64,000 nucleotides of DNA from Terriglobia bacterium (GTDB taxonomy: Bacteria > Acidobacteriota > Terriglobia > Bryobacterales > UBA6623). The position numbers were made by a program, and so were the translations under genes. Below are positions 53,933-63,882 of this stretch, piece by piece; within the stretch, counting starts at the first letter, position 1, and each line of letters opens with the position of its first letter. Below the pieces are notes generated by a model. The model was not told the DNA's origin, did no database searches, and saw only the letters and a program-made list of their open reading frames with translations. The stretch is taken from the NCBI GenBank assembly GCA_009841225.1, contig VXMF01000037.1, forward strand, positions 31,875 to 95,874, read 5' to 3'.

Positions 53933-54157
53933 TCAGCCCCTAGGGTGACGCCGCGTGGCACCCAGCCTCTCGGAAGCCCTCTCGATCACCTTGCCCTCAG
54001 CCTGCTCCCTTCCCGCCGCCCTGGCCCGGGCGATGTTGGCGCCTGGAGAGACGTTGTCCGCCTTGGCGTGCCAAGTCTCGCCTATGCGGTAGGACGTGAT
54101 GCGCACCGGCCAGCCTGCCAGTTCGAGCTCGGTGACGCTGAAGCTCTCGGCCTTCAT
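53933..54157 (-). CDS. Small hypothetical protein coupled to the sulfurtransferase
   Basis: ATG overlaps the sulfurtransferase TGA (ATGA); 74 aa MKAESFSV...; GC3-biased. Confidence 0.7.
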   Translation of the reverse strand: MKAESFSVTELELAGWPVRITSYRIGETWHAKADNVSPGANIARARAAGREQAEGKVIERASERLGATRRHPRG

Positions 54158-54999
54158 GCGCCGCGCTCGACGGGTGCGCCGACGAGGTTGCCCCACTCGG
54201 TCCACGACCCGTCATAGTTGCTCACGCCTTCGTAGCCCAGCAGGTACTTGAGCACGAACCAAGAATGGCTGGAACGCTCGCCGATGCGGCAGTACGCGAC
54301 GATCGGCTTGTCGCCGACGATGCCCTCGGCGGCGTAGAGTTCGCGCAAGGCGCCGGCACTCTTGAACGTGCCGTCCTGGGCGCAGGCCTTGCCCCACGGA
54401 ATGTTCCGCGCGCCCGGAACGTGCCCGCCGCGCTGGCACGTCTCGGGCAGGCCGGGAGGGGCGAGGATCTCGCCGCTGAACTCGGCTGGGCTCCGCACGT
54501 CGACGAGGTCGGCCGCGCTGGAGCCCGACGCCTCTCTGACCTGGCCCAGGAACGCCCGGATCGAAAGGTCCGGTTCAGAGGCGGAATAGTCCGTTGGCGC
54601 GAACTCCGGCGACTCCAATGAGAGTTCGCGCCCCTCGGCCAGCCACTTCACGCGTCCGCCGTTCATCAGCCTGACATCCGGGTGGCCGTAGATCTTCAGC
54701 TGCCAGAACGCCCAAGCGGCGAACCAGTTGTTGTTGTCGCCGTAGAGCACGACGGTCGTATCCCTGCCGATACCACTGTCGCCCAGCAATCTCTCGAAGC
54801 GGTCCTTGGGCAGGATGTCGCGCACGACCGTGTCACACAGCTGGCTGTCCCACGCCCAGCCGATCGCACCTGGCACGTGACCCTCGTCATAGGAGCCCGT
54901 GTCCACATCGACCTCCACGACTCGGACGCCGCCGCTGCGGCTGTGTTGGTCGACCCAATCGGTCGTAACCAGTACTTCTGGATGCGCGTAGCCTGACAT
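54154..54999 (-). CDS. Two-domain thiosulfate sulfurtransferase (CysA/SseA-like rhodanese)
   Basis: YAHPEVLVTTDW, GHVPGA, DVRSP.EF.G, active site YCRIGERS, NYDGSWTEWG; -10 TATAAT at 55060-55065 (minus). Confidence 0.93.
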   Translation of the reverse strand: MSGYAHPEVLVTTDWVDQHSRSGGVRVVEVDVDTGSYDEGHVPGAIGWAWDSQLCDTVVRDILPKDRFERLLGDSGIGRDTTVVLYGDNNNWFAAWAFWQLKIYGHPDVRLMNGGRVKWLAEGRELSLESPEFAPTDYSASEPDLSIRAFLGQVREASGSSAADLVDVRSPAEFSGEILAPPGLPETCQRGGHVPGARNIPWGKACAQDGTFKSAGALRELYAAEGIVGDKPIVAYCRIGERSSHSWFVLKYLLGYEGVSNYDGSWTEWGNLVGAPVERGA

Positions 55000-55337
55000 G
55001 ATTTGCTCCTCTGCTCTGCCGCTAGGCTTTCGTTTCAGGGCCGCCGGATTGACCAAACGATTATAGGTCAGGCGCGGCCGCGGAGACCGGCCCACGGCGG
55101 CGAGGCCGCTGATCCGGCCGGCCCGCGAGAGGGCGCCAGTTCCGCCTTCGCTGCGGAACGTGAAAAGCGCCCCAAGCGCCTCCGCGCGCCCGCGTCTGGG
55201 CACCAAGACATCGCACTCGCTGTTTACAACCATTTGACGAACGGCAAGTGACCCCTCTACAGCGCCTTGCGCCTATAAGAACAAGGCCGCCTGGCGGCGT
55301 CGCACCGCGCCGCTGCGACCCAAAGCACCTATCCACG

Positions 55338-56132
55338 ATGTCCTCCAGCAGCGCAAGTGCTTTCGCAGACCAAGTTCACGACCACCTTGCCGATTTCGCG
55401 ACGGTGCCGCTGGAAGCGCTCGGACCGCAGGCCTCGCAAGACCGCTGCGACACGAAGTTCTTGCTGCCACAAGGCCAGCTGCTGGCGCTGCTCGGCGCCC
55501 TGCGGCGCGACTACCGAGTCCTGGAAGTCGGCGAGATGCGCATCCATCGCTACCGCACGCTCTACTTCGACACCGCGGGATTCGACCTGTACCGAAGACA
55601 CCAACGCTCCTCGCGCGGCGCCCTCAAGGTCCGCAGCCGCCAGTATGTCGACTCGCGGCGCTCGTTCTTCGAACTCAAGCGCAAGATCGGGCCGCGCCGC
55701 ACGGTCAAGGAGCGGACCGAGACCCCGGACATCGTCACGGAGCTGACCGAGGCCGAAGGCGCCTTCATCGCAGCCCATGCGCACATTGACACCGAGTGTC
55801 TCCAGCCAACGATATGGAATCGATTCGAGCGGATCACGCTCGTGAGCAAGACGAGTCCAGAGCGAGTTACGCTCGACGTTGGCGTGCACTTCAAGATCCA
55901 GACTGGCGCGATTCGGATTCCGGGCGTTGTGGTCGGGGAACTGAAGCAGCAGCGTCTCGACCGAACATCCACATTCTTCGGCCACATGCGCTCGCTCGGA
56001 TCCCGGCCCACCGGATTCAGCAAGTACTGCGTCGGGGCGGTTCTGCTCTACCCGCAGTTGAAGCGCAGCCAAGCGCGACCCAAGCTCCGCATGCTAGCCA
56101 AGCTGGCCCGGGGAGACCGCCATGCAGCCTGA
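55338..56132 (+). CDS. VTC-domain polyphosphate polymerase (CYTH/TTM fold)
   Basis: R.DTKF, TLYFDT, KVRSRQY, FFELKRK, R.TL, ERVTLD, ELKQ, FSKYC. Confidence 0.88.
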   Translation: MSSSSASAFADQVHDHLADFATVPLEALGPQASQDRCDTKFLLPQGQLLALLGALRRDYRVLEVGEMRIHRYRTLYFDTAGFDLYRRHQRSSRGALKVRSRQYVDSRRSFFELKRKIGPRRTVKERTETPDIVTELTEAEGAFIAAHAHIDTECLQPTIWNRFERITLVSKTSPERVTLDVGVHFKIQTGAIRIPGVVVGELKQQRLDRTSTFFGHMRSLGSRPTGFSKYCVGAVLLYPQLKRSQARPKLRMLAKLARGDRHAA

Positions 56133-56742
56133 TTTGCTCGCCCACCTCGCCGGAGCCGGATTCAACCTTGCGGTGGCGCTGCTGATCGTCCGGCTGATCT
56201 ACTACCCCACTACGCAGGACAAGCAGTACGTGCTGACGTTCGTGACGTTCAGCACAGTGACCTATTTCGTGCTGGGCCTGCTGACCAGCGTTGACTTGAG
56301 CATCGGCGTGGGTTTCGGCCTGTTCGCGATCTTTTCCGTGCTGCGCTACCGCACGGACACGATCTCGGCGCGCGAGATGACCTACCTGTTCGTGCTGATC
56401 GCGCTGGCGGTGATGAATTCGGTGCTGGCGACGCAATCCGACTACGCCCGCATGCTGGCATCCAACGCAGTGGTGGTCTTGGTGATGTTCGTGCTGGAAC
56501 GCGAATGGGGCTTTCACTTCGAGGCGAGCAAGCAGATCCACTACGACAAGGTCGAACTGGTAGTGCCGTCGCGCAAGGAAGAGCTGCTCGCCGACCTGCG
56601 CGCACGGACCGGGCTGCCGGTTCGGCATGTTGCCGTGGGACGCATCGACATGGTTCGCGACACGGCGGAGCTCACGCTCTTCTTCGACGATCGGGAACAG
56701 CAAGCAGCGGCTCGTGCCAACGGGACGAAGGAAACATCATGA
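56122..56742 (+). CDS. DUF4956 membrane protein
   Basis: GVGFGLFAIFSVLRYRT, EMTYLF, Y...EL......L..DL..RTGL; overlaps the VTC stop. Confidence 0.9.
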   Translation: MQPDLLAHLAGAGFNLAVALLIVRLIYYPTTQDKQYVLTFVTFSTVTYFVLGLLTSVDLSIGVGFGLFAIFSVLRYRTDTISAREMTYLFVLIALAVMNSVLATQSDYARMLASNAVVVLVMFVLEREWGFHFEASKQIHYDKVELVVPSRKEELLADLRARTGLPVRHVAVGRIDMVRDTAELTLFFDDREQQAAARANGTKETS

Positions 56743-59552
56743 ATTCCCTATGCAAGGCAATCAGCTTGGCCGTCTTCGCAGCAACCTTAGCAGTGCTGCT
56801 CGCGCAGGGTCCGCCCGGCATCTCGAGGGTGCTGCCGGTTATGGCCGCACTCGATGCGGACGCGGACAACACGTTGTCTGAGGAAGAAATCGGCGCCGCT
56901 CCGGACGCGCTGCTCACTCTGGACACCGATGGCAGCGGCAGCCTCACTCGAGACGAGCTCATGCCGCGATTCGGCGGCAATGCTGGCGGAGGCCGCGGCA
57001 CTGGGCGCGAGGCTCGGCCCGGGGATCCGGGCACGGGCCCAAGACCGGGCAGGGGCGGCCCTGTGGGCGTTCCGGGCATCCCACTGATAGCAGCCCTCGA
57101 TCCGGACCGTGACGGGGAAATCAGGCCGGAAGAGATCCGACGGGCGACAGCGTCGCTGGCGACCCTGGATGCCGATGGTAGCGGCACCTTGACCGGTGAC
57201 GAACTACTGCCTCGATTCGGCGGGCGCGGCGGCCCGGGCAGGGGCCAGGGCCGGCCTCCGATTGCGCTGCCCGTCGTGGATGTGCTCGACGCCAATGCTG
57301 ATCGTGAGATCTCGGCTGCGGAGCTAGCGGCAGCCAGTTCGGCCCTGCGTTCACTGGACTCAAACGCCGACGGCCAGGTTAGCGAGAGCGAAATGCTGCC
57401 CCAAGGCGGCACCTTCGGCGGACGCCAGCGCGGGGGCCCACGAGGCCCCGGCGCCATGCTGGGCACACTCCCGCTTGTCGACGCGCTCGACAGCGACGGC
57501 AGCGGAGCGCTCGAACGGGCCGAGATCGACAATGCGAGCGCAGCGCTGGCAACCCTCGACAGTGACGGGAGCGGCGCGCTCTCCGCAAGCGAATTCCTCC
57601 CAAGCCGCGGCGGCCGAGGGGGCGGCGGGCGCGGTTTCCGGGGCGGCCCGGGCGGTTTCGGAGAAGTCGCGGCGGAGCGCAAGCAGCCCCACGAGCTGAC
57701 GCCTGACGAGGGAGCGGCCACGATTCCAGACCGGGCAACGTTCGAGAAATTCTCCTACCAAGGCGAGCAGGTCATGATCGATTCCGGACTCCGCGGCCTC
57801 GAATTCGTCAAGTTCGTGATCACCGAAGCCATCTCCGACGAGCCGCAGATGTACTTCATGAACACCGAGAACTTCCGCGCCCACCCGCAATTCATGCGCT
57901 CGGTCGGCCTCGGTTTCAGCGGGCGCGGCGGCCAGTCCGGCACGATGCGCGGCGTATTGGTGTTCCGCCCGCTGCTCACCGCGCCCAACGGCGACGCCGG
58001 GCTGTACACGTTCGAGTTCGAACCGAGGGACTCGTACCCGTTCGAGATGATCCGGCTCTCCCACGACCTCCTCACCGAGCACGCTCCGATCGTTGCCGGC
58101 CGGCTGGCGTACTACCCGCTACCTGCCGCTGTCGCTCGCTACGAGCAAGAGCGCGGGCAATATGAAGCCGCCGGCCTAGCGGTCTTCCGGGAGGAGGATC
58201 TGTTCGGGGACATCGCCTATCTCCCGCTCAACGCAGCCGAGGGCTTCGGCTACTTGCGGCTGATGTCGCCCGAGGACCGCCCGCGGGTGCGAGACGTGGT
58301 GCTCTACGAGAGCCTCCCCAACGAGATGCCGCGCGTGGCCGGGATCATCACAAGCGTCCGGCAGACGCCGCTCTCTCACGTGAATCTGCGGGCCGTACAG
58401 GATGGCGTGCCGAACGCGTATATCAAGGGGGCATCTGAAAACCCGGAGATCGTTGGCTTGATCGGCAAGTACGTCCGCTACAGCGTCACTCCCGATGGCT
58501 ACCAACTCCGCGAGGCAACCGTTCAGGAAGTTGAGGGCCACTTCGCCAAGCTGCGCCCGAGCCAAGCGCTCGTTCCAGAGCGCGACCTCGGCGTCAAGGA
58601 GATCCGCCCGCTGAGCGAGCTCGGCTTTGACGACGCTGCCAGCGTGGGCGTGAAGGCGGCCAATGTCGCCACCCTGGGCAGCCTGGGCTTCCCGGCAGGC
58701 GTAGTGCCGGAAGGATTCGCGATACCGTTCTCCTTCTACGACGGCTTCATGCGCCACAACGGTCTATACGAGCAGGCTGCGGCGATGTTCGCCGCGCCCG
58801 GCTTCGCAACCGACACCGGCGTTCGCGAAGAGGCGCTGCGGCAGTTCCGCAAGGCGGTCCGCGCCGGGGAAACGCCCGGCTGGATGCTGGCCGAGCTGCA
58901 GTCCATGCACGCGTGGTTCCCGGAGGGCCGCGCGATCCGCCTGCGCTCCAGCACCAACAACGAGGACCTGCCAGGCTTCAGCGGCGCCGGTTTGTACGAC
59001 TCGTTCACGCATCACCCGGAGGAGGGCCACGTTTCCAAGTCCGTCAAGCAGGTCTACGCCAGCCTCTGGAATTTCCGCGCCTATGAAGAACGCGCATTCT
59101 TCCGCATCGATCACATGGCGGCCGCGATGGGCGTATTGGTCCACCCGAACTATGCGGGCGAGCGCGCCAACGGAGTCGCGGTCACCGAGGACATCGTGTA
59201 CCAGACCGGCGGGGACGGCCGGCCGCGAATGTACTATGTCAACACCCAAGTCGGCGAGGACCTGGTCACGAACCCGGAAGGCGAGTCGATCCCGGAAGAA
59301 TTGCTGCTCAGCACCCGCGGGGCCCGGGACGACCGATTCATTCGCAGTTCCAACCGAACCGCTGACGGGGGCGTGATCCTCAACGACGAGCACCGCAACG
59401 AGCTGCGCGCCTACCTGCGCACTGTGCAGGGCAGGTTCCGCGATCTGTACGAAGTGTCCGCCAATGAGCGGTTCGCCATGGAGATCGAGTTCAAGATCAC
59501 TTCCGACGGGCGGCTGGCTGTCAAGCAAGCGCGTCCGTGGGTCTTTCACTGA
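56739..59552 (+). CDS. Exported EF-hand-repeat / phospho-His swivel / PPDK-type ATP-grasp (dikinase-like) protein, 937 aa
   Basis: ATGA overlap with DUF4956; signal peptide; 8 DxDxDG/DxDxS loops; AGIITSVRQTPLSHVNLRA; VGVKAAN, VPEGFAIP, RSSTNNED, SGAGLYDS, ASLWN, EIEF...KQARP. Confidence 0.8.
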   Translation: MNSLCKAISLAVFAATLAVLLAQGPPGISRVLPVMAALDADADNTLSEEEIGAAPDALLTLDTDGSGSLTRDELMPRFGGNAGGGRGTGREARPGDPGTGPRPGRGGPVGVPGIPLIAALDPDRDGEIRPEEIRRATASLATLDADGSGTLTGDELLPRFGGRGGPGRGQGRPPIALPVVDVLDANADREISAAELAAASSALRSLDSNADGQVSESEMLPQGGTFGGRQRGGPRGPGAMLGTLPLVDALDSDGSGALERAEIDNASAALATLDSDGSGALSASEFLPSRGGRGGGGRGFRGGPGGFGEVAAERKQPHELTPDEGAATIPDRATFEKFSYQGEQVMIDSGLRGLEFVKFVITEAISDEPQMYFMNTENFRAHPQFMRSVGLGFSGRGGQSGTMRGVLVFRPLLTAPNGDAGLYTFEFEPRDSYPFEMIRLSHDLLTEHAPIVAGRLAYYPLPAAVARYEQERGQYEAAGLAVFREEDLFGDIAYLPLNAAEGFGYLRLMSPEDRPRVRDVVLYESLPNEMPRVAGIITSVRQTPLSHVNLRAVQDGVPNAYIKGASENPEIVGLIGKYVRYSVTPDGYQLREATVQEVEGHFAKLRPSQALVPERDLGVKEIRPLSELGFDDAASVGVKAANVATLGSLGFPAGVVPEGFAIPFSFYDGFMRHNGLYEQAAAMFAAPGFATDTGVREEALRQFRKAVRAGETPGWMLAELQSMHAWFPEGRAIRLRSSTNNEDLPGFSGAGLYDSFTHHPEEGHVSKSVKQVYASLWNFRAYEERAFFRIDHMAAAMGVLVHPNYAGERANGVAVTEDIVYQTGGDGRPRMYYVNTQVGEDLVTNPEGESIPEELLLSTRGARDDRFIRSSNRTADGGVILNDEHRNELRAYLRTVQGRFRDLYEVSANERFAMEIEFKITSDGRLAVKQARPWVFH
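56841..57660 (+). repeat. Four tandem EF-hand-pair modules with Gly/Arg/Pro-rich linkers
   Basis: Module P(V/L)..ALD.D.D..I...EI..A...L..LD.DG.G.L...ELLP repeated 4 times. Confidence 0.85.
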
Positions 59553-59573: not shown

Positions 59574-60209
59574 CTACTCCGCCAGGCAAGCATCGATGTC
59601 GGCGGCGGCGATGCCACCCTGCTTGATCAGGCGCCACTGCAACGCCGTGATATCGATGGTGGTCGACGCCGGTCCCTCGATGATCCCGCCATCGACGATC
59701 AAGCTGATGCGACCGTCCATGGTTCCGAGCACCTCAAAGCCGCCGCGACACGTGGGCTTGCCTGACACGTTTGCGCTAGTGGCGATCAGAGGCGTGCCGA
59801 ATTCAGCCACTAGCCGCTTCGCCAGCGCAGATGCCGGGCGGCGAAGGGCCAGCCGGCCCGTGTTGCCGGTGACGCGCAGCGGCACCTTGGAAGACGCTGG
59901 CACGATCACAGTCAGCAGCCCCGGCCAGAAGCGCCGCGCCAGCAGGTAGAAGCTCGACGGCAATTCGCCGGCGTACTCCACGGCCATCGCGACCGAGTCG
60001 ACAAGCAGCGGTAGCGAGCGATGGGCCTCGCGTCCCTTCGCCTCAAATACCTTCGCCACGGCGTTGAGATTCAGCGGATCGGCCACCAGCACGTACAGCG
60101 CGTCGCTCGGAATCGCGATCACTTCCCCGTAGCGGACCGCACTGACCGCCGCTTCCACCACGGCATCGTCCGGATCCTCGGCCGAGGTTTCAATCAAGTG
60201 GGTAGTCAA
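59574..60209 (-). CDS. tsaC: L-threonylcarbamoyladenylate synthase (TsaC/Sua5/YrdC family)
   Basis: P.D.LY, K.R, FWPG.LT, TSANVSG, STTID. Confidence 0.85.
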   Translation of the reverse strand: MTTHLIETSAEDPDDAVVEAAVSAVRYGEVIAIPSDALYVLVADPLNLNAVAKVFEAKGREAHRSLPLLVDSVAMAVEYAGELPSSFYLLARRFWPGLLTVIVPASSKVPLRVTGNTGRLALRRPASALAKRLVAEFGTPLIATSANVSGKPTCRGGFEVLGTMDGRISLIVDGGIIEGPASTTIDITALQWRLIKQGGIAAADIDACLAE

Positions 60210-60573: not shown

Positions 60574-63500
60574 ATGCGCTTGGCGTCGATTCTTCTGACA
60601 AGCATTCTGTTGGTCTGCACCGGGGCATTCGCCCAGCAAGACCAAGGCAACATCACCGGCACGATCACCGATTCCACGGGAGCGGTGATCCCCGGGGCAA
60701 GCATCACGGCGCGCGAGATCAGCACCAACGTGACGCTGATGTCGTCGTCGAACGAGGGCGGCGTCTACGTGGTCGGGCCGCTCAAGATCGGCACCTACGA
60801 AATCTCGGTCGAGTCGGACGGCTTCAAGAGGTCCGTGCGTGCGGGAGTGGAGATTCACGCCGGCGACCGCATCGGCCTCAACTTCGAGCTGGAAGTCGGC
60901 GATCTGGTGGAAGTGGTCACGGTCGAGGGCACCACGCCGGTGCTCAAGACCGAGAACGCCACGCTGGACTACACGGTCGAGCGCAAGCAGCTGGAGGACT
61001 TCCCGCTCAACGGCCGCAGCTACCAATCGCTCGGACTGCTCAGCGCGGGCGTCGCCCCGGAAATCGGCGGCCGCGACCGCGGGCCGCTGGGCACGTCATC
61101 GTTCGGCAACGGGCTGAGCGTGAACGGCCAGCCGGCCCTGCAGAACAACTATCTGATCGACGGCGTTGACAACAACTCGACCGTGATGGGCCTGCAGGAC
61201 CGCAAGTCCCAAGCAGTCATTCCCTCGCTCGACGCCGTGCAGGAGATGAAGGTCCAGACCTCGAACTACTCCGCCGAGTATGGGCGCAACGCCGGAGGCG
61301 TGATCATGGTCTCGATTCGCGGCGGCACCAACGAGTTCCACGGTAGCGCGTACGAGTTCATCCGCAACGACGTCTTCGACGCGCGGCCGGCGTTCGGGCG
61401 TAACGACCGCGACGGCGATGGCAAGGCCGATCCGGCCGTGCTGCGCCAGAACCAGTGGGGCGGCACCTTCGGCGGCCCGATCGTCAAGAACAAGGCATTC
61501 TTCTTCGGCAGCGTGGAGACTTGGAACGTCAGGCGCGCGCAGAGCGACCTAGTGGTCGTGCCGACGGCGCTGGAGCGCGCAGGCGACTTCAGCCAGACGG
61601 CGGGGCTGGCCAGGCTGCTCGACCCCAACACCTCCTCCGTGCCGGCAGAGCGGGGAGAATTCCCGAACAAGACGATTCCCGCCAACTTCGCCATGCGCGA
61701 CCCGGTCGGCGTCGCCTTGGCGGATCTTTACCCGGCGCCAAACCTGTCCGACCCCGCCACTCGCAACAACTTCACCAGCGGCGAGCCGTGGATGACCGAC
61801 CGCGTGCAGTACGACTTCCGCTACGACCAGACCGCCTCGGCGAAGGACAGTCTCTTCGTGCGCTACAGCATGTACACGTTCGACCAGAATCGCGGCGCGC
61901 CGCTGCCGGGCATCGCGCGCGGCGGGGTGGGCAACGACCGCGCCCGCGACGACAACGGAGGCTCGCACTTGGTGATCTCGGAAACGCATGTGTTCAATCC
62001 CTTCGTCATCAACGAATTCCGCTTCGGGCGCAAATTCTTGGGCGTGAACAAGGACATCGATTCCAACGTGCCGCTGGCCGACCTCGCCCAGCAGTACGGG
62101 CTGCGCGGCGTGGACACGTCTGACAACATCAACGGACTGCCCCGCTTCGCGATGGCCGGGAACTTGCCCTTCATCGGCTTGGGAGGCTCGGGCTTCCAGC
62201 CCAACATCAAGGACACCTGGACCTATCAGTGGATGAACAACCTCACCGTGATCCGAGGCAACCACAGCATCAAGTTCGGAGCGGACATTCGCTATGACCG
62301 CACGAACATCGAGGGCTCGCAGAACGCTCGCGGCATCTTTAACTTCAACGGCAAGTTCAGCGGCATCAGCATGGCCGACTTCCTGCTGGGCTGGATCAAC
62401 AACGCCACCAAGAGCACCCAGGTGCTCAGTGACCAGCTCTTCCGCAGCTACATGTTCTTCGTCCAAGACGATTGGAAGGTCACGCCGAGCCTGACGTTGA
62501 ACTTGGGAGTGCGCTACGAATTGACCTCGCCGTGGTTCGCTGAAGACAACCGCATGAACAAGCTGTCGATCGATCCCGACACCTACGGCCAGACGATCAC
62601 GGCGGGTGAGTTCGGCGACAGCTGGTCCCACCGCGCTTTGGTCAACACCGACGCCAACAACTGGGCTCCGCGGGTCGGGTTCGCGTGGCAGCCTGCCCAG
62701 CGCTGGACTTTCCGCGGCGGGGCGGGGGTGTTCTACGGCGGCCAGCAAGGGCTGGGAGCGTCCGGGCGCATGCTAGCGAACTTCCCGTTCGTCGCGCAGG
62801 TTCAGCGCACCTCGGGCCGGGCGGCACCGGCATTCTTGCTACGCGATGGTTTCCCGGCGGACTTCCTAGGAGACCTAAGCGATGCCGACAATCGGCCGCG
62901 CAACCTCAGTTTGCAGCACTGGTCGACGCATTTTCCCATGCCGACGACCTACCAGTGGAACTTCAGCGTCCAGCGGCAACTCGCGAACAACCTCGGCCTG
63001 ACCGTTGCCTATGTCGGCTCGTCGTCGAATTTCCTGCTGAGCGCCTATAACGAGAACGCGGCGACACGCGGGGACCCGGGCACCGAGGCCTCGCGGCGCA
63101 AGCACTTCGAGGATGTCGGCAATCTGGTCTACAGGACCCCGTACGGCTCGGCGAATTACAACGGCCTCAACACCACCCTCGCCAAGCGCTTCTCCGGGGG
63201 CAACTTGTGGACCATCGCCTACACCTGGGCGCACGGCATCGGCAACACTCCGGAACAGTTCGTGGGCGGCGAGACCGGCGTGCAGGATCCGACCTGCTTC
63301 TCGTGCCAGCGCGGCTCGAACTCCAGCGACGTGCGGCAGCGCCTCGCCACAAGCTACGTGGTGGAACTGCCCTTCGGCCGGGGCAAGCGGCTGCTGGACA
63401 GGGGCGGAGCGGTCAACGCGATCTTCGGCGGCTGGCAGCTGACCGGCCTGCTACAGGCGCAAACCGGCCAGTACTACAACGTCACCCTGCCGAACGCCTT

Positions 63501-63882
63501 TAGCAACCTAGGTACTCGCGTGGGCACCTGGAGGCCGGACGTGATCGGCGAGCACCGCGTGTCGAACCCCGGGCCGGACAAGTGGTATGAGCGCACCGCC
63601 TTCGAGATTCCGCGGGACGCGAACGGCGTGCCGGACTTCGGCAACGTGGGCCGCAACACCATGCAAGAGGACGGCATCTTCAACTGGGACATCGGGCTGC
63701 AGAAATCCTTCTACCCGACCGAGGGTACCGAGGTGCAGTTCCGCTACGAGGTGTTCAACCTGACCAACCACCCGAGCTTCGCAGTGCCGAACCGAAACGT
63801 CCGCTCGCCGGCCGGCGGCACGATCCGCAACACGAATACGACACCGCGACAGATGCAGTTCAGTCTGCGCATCGTCTTCTAA
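60574..63882 (+). CDS. TonB-dependent receptor, Oar-like
   Basis: Signal peptide; ITGTITDSTGAVIPGA, PLNGR, YSAEYGR..GG, GTNEFHG, PRQMQFSLRIVF; RBS AGGGGG. Confidence 0.94.
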   Translation: MRLASILLTSILLVCTGAFAQQDQGNITGTITDSTGAVIPGASITAREISTNVTLMSSSNEGGVYVVGPLKIGTYEISVESDGFKRSVRAGVEIHAGDRIGLNFELEVGDLVEVVTVEGTTPVLKTENATLDYTVERKQLEDFPLNGRSYQSLGLLSAGVAPEIGGRDRGPLGTSSFGNGLSVNGQPALQNNYLIDGVDNNSTVMGLQDRKSQAVIPSLDAVQEMKVQTSNYSAEYGRNAGGVIMVSIRGGTNEFHGSAYEFIRNDVFDARPAFGRNDRDGDGKADPAVLRQNQWGGTFGGPIVKNKAFFFGSVETWNVRRAQSDLVVVPTALERAGDFSQTAGLARLLDPNTSSVPAERGEFPNKTIPANFAMRDPVGVALADLYPAPNLSDPATRNNFTSGEPWMTDRVQYDFRYDQTASAKDSLFVRYSMYTFDQNRGAPLPGIARGGVGNDRARDDNGGSHLVISETHVFNPFVINEFRFGRKFLGVNKDIDSNVPLADLAQQYGLRGVDTSDNINGLPRFAMAGNLPFIGLGGSGFQPNIKDTWTYQWMNNLTVIRGNHSIKFGADIRYDRTNIEGSQNARGIFNFNGKFSGISMADFLLGWINNATKSTQVLSDQLFRSYMFFVQDDWKVTPSLTLNLGVRYELTSPWFAEDNRMNKLSIDPDTYGQTITAGEFGDSWSHRALVNTDANNWAPRVGFAWQPAQRWTFRGGAGVFYGGQQGLGASGRMLANFPFVAQVQRTSGRAAPAFLLRDGFPADFLGDLSDADNRPRNLSLQHWSTHFPMPTTYQWNFSVQRQLANNLGLTVAYVGSSSNFLLSAYNENAATRGDPGTEASRRKHFEDVGNLVYRTPYGSANYNGLNTTLAKRFSGGNLWTIAYTWAHGIGNTPEQFVGGETGVQDPTCFSCQRGSNSSDVRQRLATSYVVELPFGRGKRLLDRGGAVNAIFGGWQLTGLLQAQTGQYYNVTLPNAFSNLGTRVGTWRPDVIGEHRVSNPGPDKWYERTAFEIPRDANGVPDFGNVGRNTMQEDGIFNWDIGLQKSFYPTEGTEVQFRYEVFNLTNHPSFAVPNRNVRSPAGGTIRNTNTTPRQMQFSLRIVF

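Follow-up and report, generated by a model that had tools for sequence, protein, structure and literature searches.

In a 64,000-nucleotide stretch of a contig from a sponge-associated Terriglobia bacterium (the whole stretch is called the window below), we found a three-gene operon whose last gene probably codes for a calcium-binding, exported phosphotransferase of the dikinase type with a swivelling phosphohistidine (His-swivel) domain, one of a large family of such proteins. Its catalytic core is ordered as in GWD, the glucan, water dikinase of plants, and the two other genes of the operon encode a VTC-domain protein and a DUF4956 membrane protein. The architecture, conservation, exported context and gene linkage of the dikinase were observed, and we infer by analogy that ATP may be the donor and that phospho-His547 would be formed. 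The operon points to an undescribed phosphorylation route for targets outside the cell. In the list of open reading frames (ORFs), the locus 55248-59552 holds three frames, all on the + strand, with the following features.

55338-56132, + strand: VTC-domain gene (triphosphate-tunnel, polyphosphate-polymerase-like); PF09359, E 3.5e-21, 76.3 bits against a cut-off of 23
56122-56742, + strand: DUF4956 membrane-protein gene; PF16316, E 7.3e-54
56739-59552, + strand: dikinase-like gene, 937 aa, exported EF-hand / N-domain / phospho-His / ATP-grasp protein; from the ORF, Pfam and relatives
56739-56807, + strand: signal-peptide-like N-terminus, aa 1-23, MNSLCKAISLAVFAATLAVLLAQ; Kyte-Doolittle mean 2.74, hydrophobic 12-aa window following Lys
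56826-57695, + strand: EF-hand calcium-binding loops, four pairs (eight loops); EF-hand_1/5/6/7 of Pfam, E 5e-17 to 1.6e-13
57696-58190, + strand: N-domain, aa 320-484, 165-aa alpha/beta domain, presumed acceptor site; AlphaFold2 block with a predicted local distance difference test score (pLDDT) mostly of 89-97
58191-58568, + strand: phosphohistidine swivel-type domain, aa 485-610; Foldseek phospho-His matches, PF22973 at E 0.21
58377-58379, + strand: His547 codon, presumed phospho-carrier; read from the sequence, conserved in 271/271 relatives
58641-59549, + strand: PPDK_N-type ATP-grasp nucleotide-binding domain, aa 635-937; PF01326, phmmer against PDB sequences, Foldseek

The dikinase protein opens with a signal-like segment, which is followed by the eight EF-hand loops; then come an alpha/beta domain of 165 aa (the N-domain), a His swivel-type domain and, at the C terminus, a PPDK_N ATP-grasp domain. 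The catalytic core comprises 618 aa (aa 320-937), and its AlphaFold2 model, computed with 40 sequences, had a pLDDT of 91.0 and a predicted TM score (pTM) of 0.85. Three units were distinguished in the model, namely an alpha/beta unit (core residues 1-165), a beta-rich unit (about core residues 166-290) with a short helix that starts at His547, and the ATP-grasp unit.

The first-pass annotation of this DNA had recognised a swivel-domain motif in the frame, and the string AGIITSVRQTPLSHVNLRAVQDGVPN is indeed present in the dikinase protein, its His codon at 58377-58379 being that of His547. This residue (H228 in core numbering) was invariant in 40/40 aligned relatives, which are 43-71% identical, as were Q223, P225, L226, N230, L231 and A233 in the same numbering. 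It was also retained in 271/271 family proteins fetched, of which 254 have the strict motif PLSH[VIL] and 5 a relaxed one, while the residue was located in the other 12 by aligning them with BLAST. The invariance of His547 and of its surrounding residues in relatives showed that the motif is not due to chance, and the conservation of His547 in homologs, which the annotation had named as a check on its reading, was thus observed in both the aligned and the fetched sets.

Since Foldseek comparisons of the whole core were dominated by the ATP domain, the N-terminal half of the core (N-half) was folded separately with AlphaFold2 (pLDDT 94.0). The top PDB match of the N-half was 5hv2, a structure of rifampin phosphotransferase (RPH) (E 5.3e-3, probability 1.00), and RPH 5fbt, 5hv1 and 5fbu were also matched over 105-110 columns with a root-mean-square deviation (rmsd) of 2.6-3.3 A; across the four RPH matches, the ranges are 105-115 columns and an rmsd of 2.6-6.7 A. 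Further matches were the N-terminal domains of Enzyme I (5t12, 1zym, 5woy and 2wqd), the isolated phosphoryl carrier domain of pyruvate, phosphate dikinase (PPDK; 2fm4, TM 0.49 on the target), and MccF, aconitase X and PA domains, which belong to the same swivelling beta/beta/alpha fold in SCOP. These matches, though weak, agree among themselves. The annotation had also proposed to examine the fold of the LSH region. The model predicts a swivelling beta/beta/alpha domain there, and the structures that match it best in the PDB, at weak E-values, are phosphohistidine domains. The sole Pfam lead for the His segment was GWD1_pHisD (PF22973, E 0.21), a family also found at E<=1 in 16 of the 40 relatives (best E 0.0018), with none shown reaching the cut-off. 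PF00391 was found in 0/40 relatives and not at E<=10 on the His segment of the dikinase in Pfam searches. The ESM Atlas comparison of aa 485-937 returned bacterial PPDK_N clusters, in one of which PF22973 occurs in 15% of members.

In the ATP-grasp domain, PPDK_N (PF01326) covers aa 635-933 of the 937 residues (E 1.3e-21, 77.7 bits against a cut-off of 27), and therefore the nucleotide-binding domain reaches the C-terminus, the protein stopping 4 residues past the match. With the His domain at aa 485-610, this is the arrangement that had first been proposed, a C-terminal nucleotide-binding domain following the His domain. Matches of phmmer to PDB sequences (2ols, 9dae and 5hv1, which are PEP synthase or RPH-type chains; PEP, phosphoenolpyruvate) did not extend beyond the ATP domain. 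When the whole core was compared by Foldseek, the matches, which include PEP synthase 2ols (4.3e-15), RPH 5hv1-3 (5hv3 at 6e-15), HpeI 9goj and PPDKs, span about 350 columns corresponding to the same domain. In core numbering, G318, K320, R415, R417, S418, S419, E423 and AGLY are invariant, and E596, E598, K600, Q611 and R613 are nearly invariant; judged from the alignment, the predicted nucleotide and Mg residues are thus invariant or nearly so. A PEP/pyruvate TIM barrel was said at first pass to be missing, and the Pfam scan of the dikinase matched neither PEP-utilizers_C nor PF00391. NCBIfam models of PEP synthase, RPH and related enzymes aligned to aa 621-843 only, with 29-68 bits against cut-offs of 598-1700, and NF041857, the RPH equivalog, reached 53.8 bits against a cut-off of 999 in the ATP domain only. 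Together with the reversed domain order, these results agree with the original view that the protein is not a PEP synthase. A canonical PPDK_N gene is present elsewhere in the genome (952-aa open frame, C34:212263-213279), and the cell therefore has another enzyme of the superfamily besides the exported dikinase.

The domain in front of the His domain had been described as an unassigned stretch of ~180 aa (about 57700-58230), and in our model it corresponds to a confidently folded alpha/beta domain at aa 320-484, with about seven strands and five helices. His382 is invariant in a 37-row alignment (A2) and nearly invariant in a second one (A1), and K358, N375 and F385 are nearly invariant. Searched alone, the N-domain matched no Pfam family at E<=10, aa 320-620 matched no PDB sequence by phmmer, and no assignable Foldseek match was obtained for the domain, even with the N-half folded separately. 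Comparisons of aa 320-490 with the ESM Atlas gave low scores of 0.80 and 0.76 only, which are leads at most; the second is a Chlorophyta cluster with PF22973 in 65% of its members. The 165-aa N-domain may bind the acceptor.

By the searches below, proteins that share the 618-aa core make up a very large family without a name, spread across many phyla. A word-indexed search with the core gave 4260 matches at E<=0.001 among 7999 candidates, and the best 120 of the 4260 relatives had 90-100% core coverage and 56-95% identity. When 50%-identity representatives were searched exhaustively, 4905 matched at E<=0.001, of which 1089 reached E<=1e-30, and many matches are 1000-3769-aa proteins in which the dikinase module is embedded. 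In species-representative genomes, a relative is encoded by at least 571 of the 600 stretches that were candidates. The 80 loci that were kept for neighbourhood analysis come from Acidobacteriota, Planctomycetota, Poribacteria, Verrucomicrobiota, Gammaproteobacteria, Chloroflexota, Acidimicrobiales, Bacteroidales and a Deferribacteres-labelled metagenome-assembled genome (MAG). Among the matches listed, the closest relatives, from Terriglobia and Bryobacterales MAGs, are 94-95% identical in the core, and the core is 45-60% identical across phyla including Actinomycetota, Bacteroidota, Chloroflexota, Poribacteria, Verrucomicrobiota, Planctomycetota, Acidobacteriota and Gammaproteobacteria. Among the matches listed, database names were 'hypothetical protein', 'PEP/pyruvate-binding domain-containing protein' and, once, 'Phosphoenolpyruvate synthase'. 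No paper on the family was found in the literature on DUF4956, VTC, PF01326, PF22973 and bacterial GWD, a search that did not cover supplementary files, and the papers listed for water dikinases and prokaryotic homologs all deal with plants or algae.

Within its own order, the dikinase was found in 12/30 other genomes of the same genus, in 1/6 genomes of other genera of the family and in 0/24 genomes of the other two families. The single match in another genus is partial, covering core residues 6-393 only at 45% identity in a 582-aa open frame (G036:C1:472007-473179). This match may represent a relative that has been truncated or has diverged, and a search of the genome concerned found no VTC gene.

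The protein had been called exported at first pass, and both its own N-terminus and the modules of its relatives support this. The first 23 residues are conserved among close relatives and were called signal-peptide-like by a crude hydrophobicity rule, not by SignalP. Pfam placed the tail of the type IX secretion system (T9SS; Por_Secre_tail) in 5/40 relatives and CHU_C in 1/40. All six long members examined first (6/6) carry cadherin, fn3, PKD or Ig domains, and the next 24 long members carry fn3 (14), IG_AIR9 (11), SCAB-Ig (10) and cadherin (5), with no cytoplasmic enzyme domain among the 25 families listed out of the 55 in these 24. The T9SS tails and the fn3, cadherin and Ig stalks support export of the family, and the high core identity across phyla, set against very variable stalks, suggests conserved chemistry and variable targeting. 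In the window's protein the four EF-hand pairs are separated by Gly/Pro/Arg-rich linkers. This region is a lineage-specific accessory that many relatives do not have, and eight such loops would agree with a calcium-rich extracytoplasmic location.

Two further observations were made on long members. Those borne on stalks (alignment A5) have an extra conserved stretch of ~100 aa before the core, with the consensus ...DPADVDGDCIDDITEL... and an acidic Cys-containing D-x-D-G-D-type loop at its end; the stretch is absent from the window's dikinase, which has EF-hands there instead. The giant relatives P0124 (3227 aa) and P0125 (2025 aa) each show two matched stretches and two PPDK_N stretches, and may carry two dikinase modules per protein.

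The three genes are tightly packed. The VTC and DUF4956 genes share 11 nt, and the DUF4956 stop and the dikinase start share 4 nt (ATGA), both as read from the sequence. An AAGGA box lies 8 nt upstream of the dikinase ATG at 56739, and 16 close relatives share an N-terminus beginning MNS..., which together with the box and the ATGA overlap place the start at 56739, not 56505. The 1015-aa frame from 56505 was rejected as the dikinase gene, as the N-termini of the 16 relatives match the start at 56739. The start of the VTC gene is uncertain (ATG 55338 or GTG 55248), and its product has no signal peptide. The flanking genes, 54154-55233 and 59574-60209, are both on the - strand, and therefore VTC, DUF4956 and dikinase form a three-gene operon, in which the dikinase gene appears, from the overlaps, to be translationally coupled to the other two. 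Of the two genes that bound the operon, 59574-60209 (-) resembles, by eye, a gene for a Sua5/YciO/YrdC-type protein and 54154-55233 (-) one for a two-domain rhodanese sulfurtransferase. Further downstream, 60574-63882 (+) is an ORF of 1102 aa with a signal-like N-terminus and, by eye, the look of a CarboxypepD_reg/TonB-dependent-receptor-type outer-membrane protein.

We also compared the neighbourhoods of the 80 loci. With hidden Markov models (HMMs) iterated from confirmed hits, VTC and DUF4956 genes were found adjoining the dikinase gene on the same strand in 14/80 loci; plain phmmer had found VTC in 7/80 and DUF4956 in 8/80 loci, and the iterated HMMs found 14 each. Pfam confirmed the five divergent VTC/DUF4956 partners that were submitted. 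The trio occurs in three orders (VTC-DUF4956-dikinase, DUF4956-VTC-dikinase and dikinase-VTC-DUF4956), and its 14 loci belong to Acidobacteriota (5), Planctomycetota (6) and one MAG each of Proteobacteria, Bacteroidales and a Deferribacteres-labelled lineage. In the genus of the window's genome, the 12 of 30 genomes that carry the dikinase are exactly the 12 that carry VTC, the two genes lying 2-3.5 kb apart on the same contig and strand, and neither gene was found in the remaining 18/30; the trio is counted as a unit in these 12 genomes. The window's own genome, which is 98.55% complete, has a single VTC gene, that of the operon, and no CotH gene was found in it. Across 16 VTC sequences that are 17-75% identical, 19 columns of K, R, E, D, Y or T are invariant, which is what an active tunnel enzyme would keep. 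When the ORFs on either side were clustered, all the synteny that emerged was specific to single lineages (Laminin_G_3, DUF5916, sulfatase, DUF1501 and a PQQ propeller), and no partner common to the whole family was found in this way. A complex prediction for VTC and DUF4956 scored 0.00 and 0.00 against a mark of 0.32, which is evidence neither for nor against binding.

The VTC-DUF4956 pair was also observed apart from the dikinase. In the three of five other family-carrying genomes that have VTC, all 4 VTC genes pair with DUF4956, and 3/4 of these pairs are directly next to genes for CotH kinases, with modules of the LTD or Fn3_assoc type. At the fourth pair (L089, G003:C1:5707000-5723000), a gene for an HlyD-type adaptor and then a FIST-domain gene stand in place of CotH, and upstream there is a gene for pyruvate kinase in the opposite orientation. 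Among 14 control genomes, VTC matches were obtained in Bacteroides thetaiotaomicron, Corynebacterium glutamicum and Methanosarcina acetivorans; these three also match CotH, as does additionally Bacillus subtilis. The co-occurrence of VTC and CotH in the control genomes is a small independent hint.

The dikinase family is frequent in runs labelled sponge metagenome. A 4.3-kb stretch of the window was present in at least 20 runs from 11 studies, most of these runs labelled sponge metagenome, one of which may be the source of this DNA, and three independent DNA runs cover the stretch. In a sponge metatranscriptome run (X20), a contig of 2915 nt, about 90% identical, covers 55941-58846, that is, the end of the VTC gene, the whole DUF4956 gene and part of the dikinase gene. 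This is presence in an RNA library only, in which DNA carry-over is possible and a single transcript is not proven, and the parts that the contig leaves uncovered carry no weight as evidence.

If the protein works as PPDK, RPH and GWD do, a nucleotide phosphodonor would be bound by the ATP-grasp domain, and His547 on its short helix would take the beta-phosphoryl group. The His domain would then pivot to the 165-aa N-domain, where the invariant His382 may assist, and the phosphate would be passed to an extracytoplasmic acceptor, most likely a surface or matrix polymer. The VTC-DUF4956 pair, a presumably cytoplasmic tunnel enzyme and a membrane protein, may provide phosphotransferases that are exported with phosphoanhydride energy from across the inner membrane, in the form of polyphosphate or a nucleotide, and the same supply would serve CotH kinases elsewhere. 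This role is suggested because the pair accompanies two unrelated types of exported ATP-using proteins, CotH and the dikinase, is the sole pair in this genome and travels with the dikinase. In its most explicit form, which we regard as conceivable though rather unlikely, VTC-DUF4956 would be a bacterial counterpart of the eukaryotic VTC machine and would make polyphosphate from cytoplasmic ATP and thread it outward through the inner membrane. The dikinase here, and CotH in other cassettes, would draw on this polymer, either directly or by way of a nucleotide that they bind, and so phosphorylate polymers of the surface or of the host.

Several observations weigh against the reading of the protein as an exported, GWD-order dikinase supplied by VTC-DUF4956. 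ATP is not expected in the periplasm or extracellularly, which is a donor problem for an exported dikinase. Neither VTC nor DUF4956 was seen within about 6 kb in 66/80 loci, and no VTC gene was found in 2/5 other genomes that carry the family (Poribacteria and Dehalococcoidia), and therefore the VTC-DUF4956 link is not general. The genomes of the same genus are kin, so that the co-occurrence among them may reflect few gain or loss events. In the structural comparison, the N-half reached no E-value better than 5.3e-3 and had 0 matches at E<=1e-3, which is weak, and the aligned query residues were not reported; PF22973 in the dikinase is far under threshold (11.6 bits against a cut-off of 27). 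The crude signal-peptide rule was passed by 176 of the 254 family proteins starting with M. The N-domain is unlike the all-alpha central domain of GWD1, and nothing here therefore points to a glucan acceptor.

The charging of His547 could be linked to polyphosphate, in that free ATP is not consumed and polyphosphate or pyrophosphate from VTC-DUF4956, with bound AMP or ADP as cofactor and reversed PPDK-like steps, charges the residue or regenerates a nucleoside triphosphate outside. Such a scheme would solve the missing external ATP, it has the coupling to the genome's only VTC gene and the strict co-presence of dikinase and VTC in 12/30 genomes of the genus in its favour, and PPDK partial reactions are reversible and use phosphate and pyrophosphate. 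However, the same 66/80 loci have no VTC neighbour and two family-carrying genomes have no VTC gene, export by VTC-DUF4956 is putative, and no ATP-grasp dikinase is known to use polyphosphate; we consider the scheme unlikely. The occurrence of the 4.3-kb stretch in sponge-metagenome runs from several studies, the many relatives from Poribacteria and other MAGs, the frequent fn3, cadherin, LRR and Ig fusions and the patchy spread (12/30 in the genus, 1/6 in other genera of the family, 0/24 in other families of the order) would instead fit a host-facing enzyme of sponge symbionts. Such an enzyme would use host extracellular ATP, as a sink, or phosphorylate host matrix glycans or proteins, with EF-hand, cadherin and fn3 modules for targeting or adhesion. 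Relatives not labelled sponge-derived (Stieleria marina, Roseibacillus, Fuerstiella and Limisphaerales MAGs) argue against it, as does the VTC coupling, which suggests a supply made by the cell, and we hold this explanation to be distinctly unlikely.

An extracytoplasmic site with no obvious ATP supply and adhesin-like stalks around the core might suggest a module that binds or senses nucleotide or phosphate, or an adhesin head, in which the fold was kept without transfer. However, K320, R415/R417, E423, E596/E598, Q611/R613 and His547 are invariant or nearly so over many phyla, and pseudoenzymes usually lose catalytic residues, which makes a non-catalytic role very unlikely. One relative is named 'Phosphoenolpyruvate synthase' and the NCBIfam models of PEP synthase and RPH match the ATP domain, as would be seen for an ordinary cytoplasmic PEP synthase or PPDK, or for an RPH-like small-molecule phosphotransferase. 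These matches, however, are limited to aa 621-843 and to 29-68 bits against 598-1700, barrel and PF00391 are missing, the order is reversed, the context is that of an exported protein, and the genome has its separate canonical PPDK_N gene; such an identity is improbable in the extreme. An exported dikinase that phosphorylates an acceptor outside the cytoplasm is the explanation that we prefer.

Dikinase machinery in which every catalytic residue is kept is here exported, in a family of more than 1000 clusters at 50% identity that is often set on adhesin-like stalks. If the enzyme is active, bacteria phosphorylate outside the cytoplasm by means of an ATP-grasp enzyme, and its energy source then needs explaining. 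The tight and repeated coupling to VTC-DUF4956, a pair also found with exported CotH kinases, makes this puzzle experimentally approachable as a question of polyphosphate or nucleotide delivery, and if polyphosphate is threaded outward, it would be an energy route for extracytoplasmic phosphorylation without external ATP. Such a result would also bear on surface-polymer chemistry, on the interaction between sponge symbionts and their host, and on a possible enzymatic phosphorylation of polysaccharides.

To our knowledge, His-swivel dikinases are known only as intracellular enzymes, that is, PPDK, PEP synthase, RPH and GWD. With PPDK and PEP synthase, the dikinase of the window shares a homologous ATP-grasp domain and the swivelling phospho-His carrier fold predicted for it. 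It differs from them in that their order is ATP domain, His domain and barrel, whereas it has no barrel and no PF00391, and its His domain precedes the ATP domain. RPH, the phenolic phosphate synthetase BsPPS and the HpeI/AcvAB-type phenol dikinases gave the best structural matches, for the ATP domain (5hv1-3, 9goj) as well as for the His domain (5hv2, 5fbt, 5hv1, 5fbu). RPH, in contrast, has the order ATP, substrate and His domain, and all these enzymes are cytoplasmic and act on small-molecule acceptors. In RPH, BsPPS and the HpeI/AcvAB-type enzymes, a second set of catalytic residues is located in the acceptor domain, according to the GWD1 structure paper (PMC13553574).

The GWD-like domain order, proposed in the first-pass annotation as distinct from that of PPDK/PEP synthase and RPH, was borne out by comparison with potato GWD1. 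As described in the structure paper, GWD1 has two CBM45 domains, an all-alpha central domain (aa 483-926; 444 aa, 20 helices), a His domain (931-1050, with His992) and an ATP domain (1069-1387); its order differs from that of PPDK and RPH, with which it shares the folds of the His and ATP domains, and its catalytic His is exposed on a short helix in a His domain that pivots (PMC13553574). GWD and PWD (phosphoglucan, water dikinase) of plants and algae (EC 2.7.9.4 / 2.7.9.5) and the dikinase thus have the order of acceptor-side, His and C-terminal PPDK_N domains in common, the last two domains corresponding in order to those of GWD1; for the His segment, Pfam offered no lead other than GWD1_pHisD, and in our model the dikinase His also lies on a short helix. 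On the other side, PF22973 is below its gathering score in the dikinase, Pfam found neither CBM45 nor CBM20 in it or among the 25 families listed out of 32 for the 40 relatives, its pre-His domain is a 165-aa alpha/beta domain versus the 444-aa all-alpha domain described for GWD1, and it is bacterial and exported, whereas GWD acts on plastid starch. The likeness to GWD, given the different N-domain, is therefore one of order and of the His and ATP domains, not of substrate handling, and the protein, judged by the tests run, is a putative GWD-order dikinase that is not a member of the GWD family. The stems 'bacteri' and 'prokaryot' are absent from the text of the GWD1 structure paper (2026, Journal of Biological Chemistry, JBC; PMC13553574).

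The gene linkage also has counterparts. Sets of CotH, polyphosphate polymerase and DUF4956 genes appear beside Gram-positive pel loci, with no function given in the text available (PMC7112168), and in the gene table of C. perfringens NELoc-2 (PMC2879425). In those sets, as here, VTC and a DUF4956-type membrane gene stand beside a gene for an exported ATP-using phosphotransferase; the exported partner here, however, is a His-swivel dikinase and not a CotH protein-kinase fold, in a genome without CotH. In the eukaryotic VTC complex, the tunnel domain of Vtc4 is coupled to a membrane channel. The VTC domain here likewise has conserved basic and acidic tunnel columns and is encoded beside a membrane protein, but its membrane partner is DUF4956 instead of the VTC transmembrane domain, and no SPX was found by Pfam. 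The system of the window appears to join a GWD-order His-swivel dikinase to a new putative acceptor-side domain, an exported location and a candidate VTC-DUF4956 supply module.

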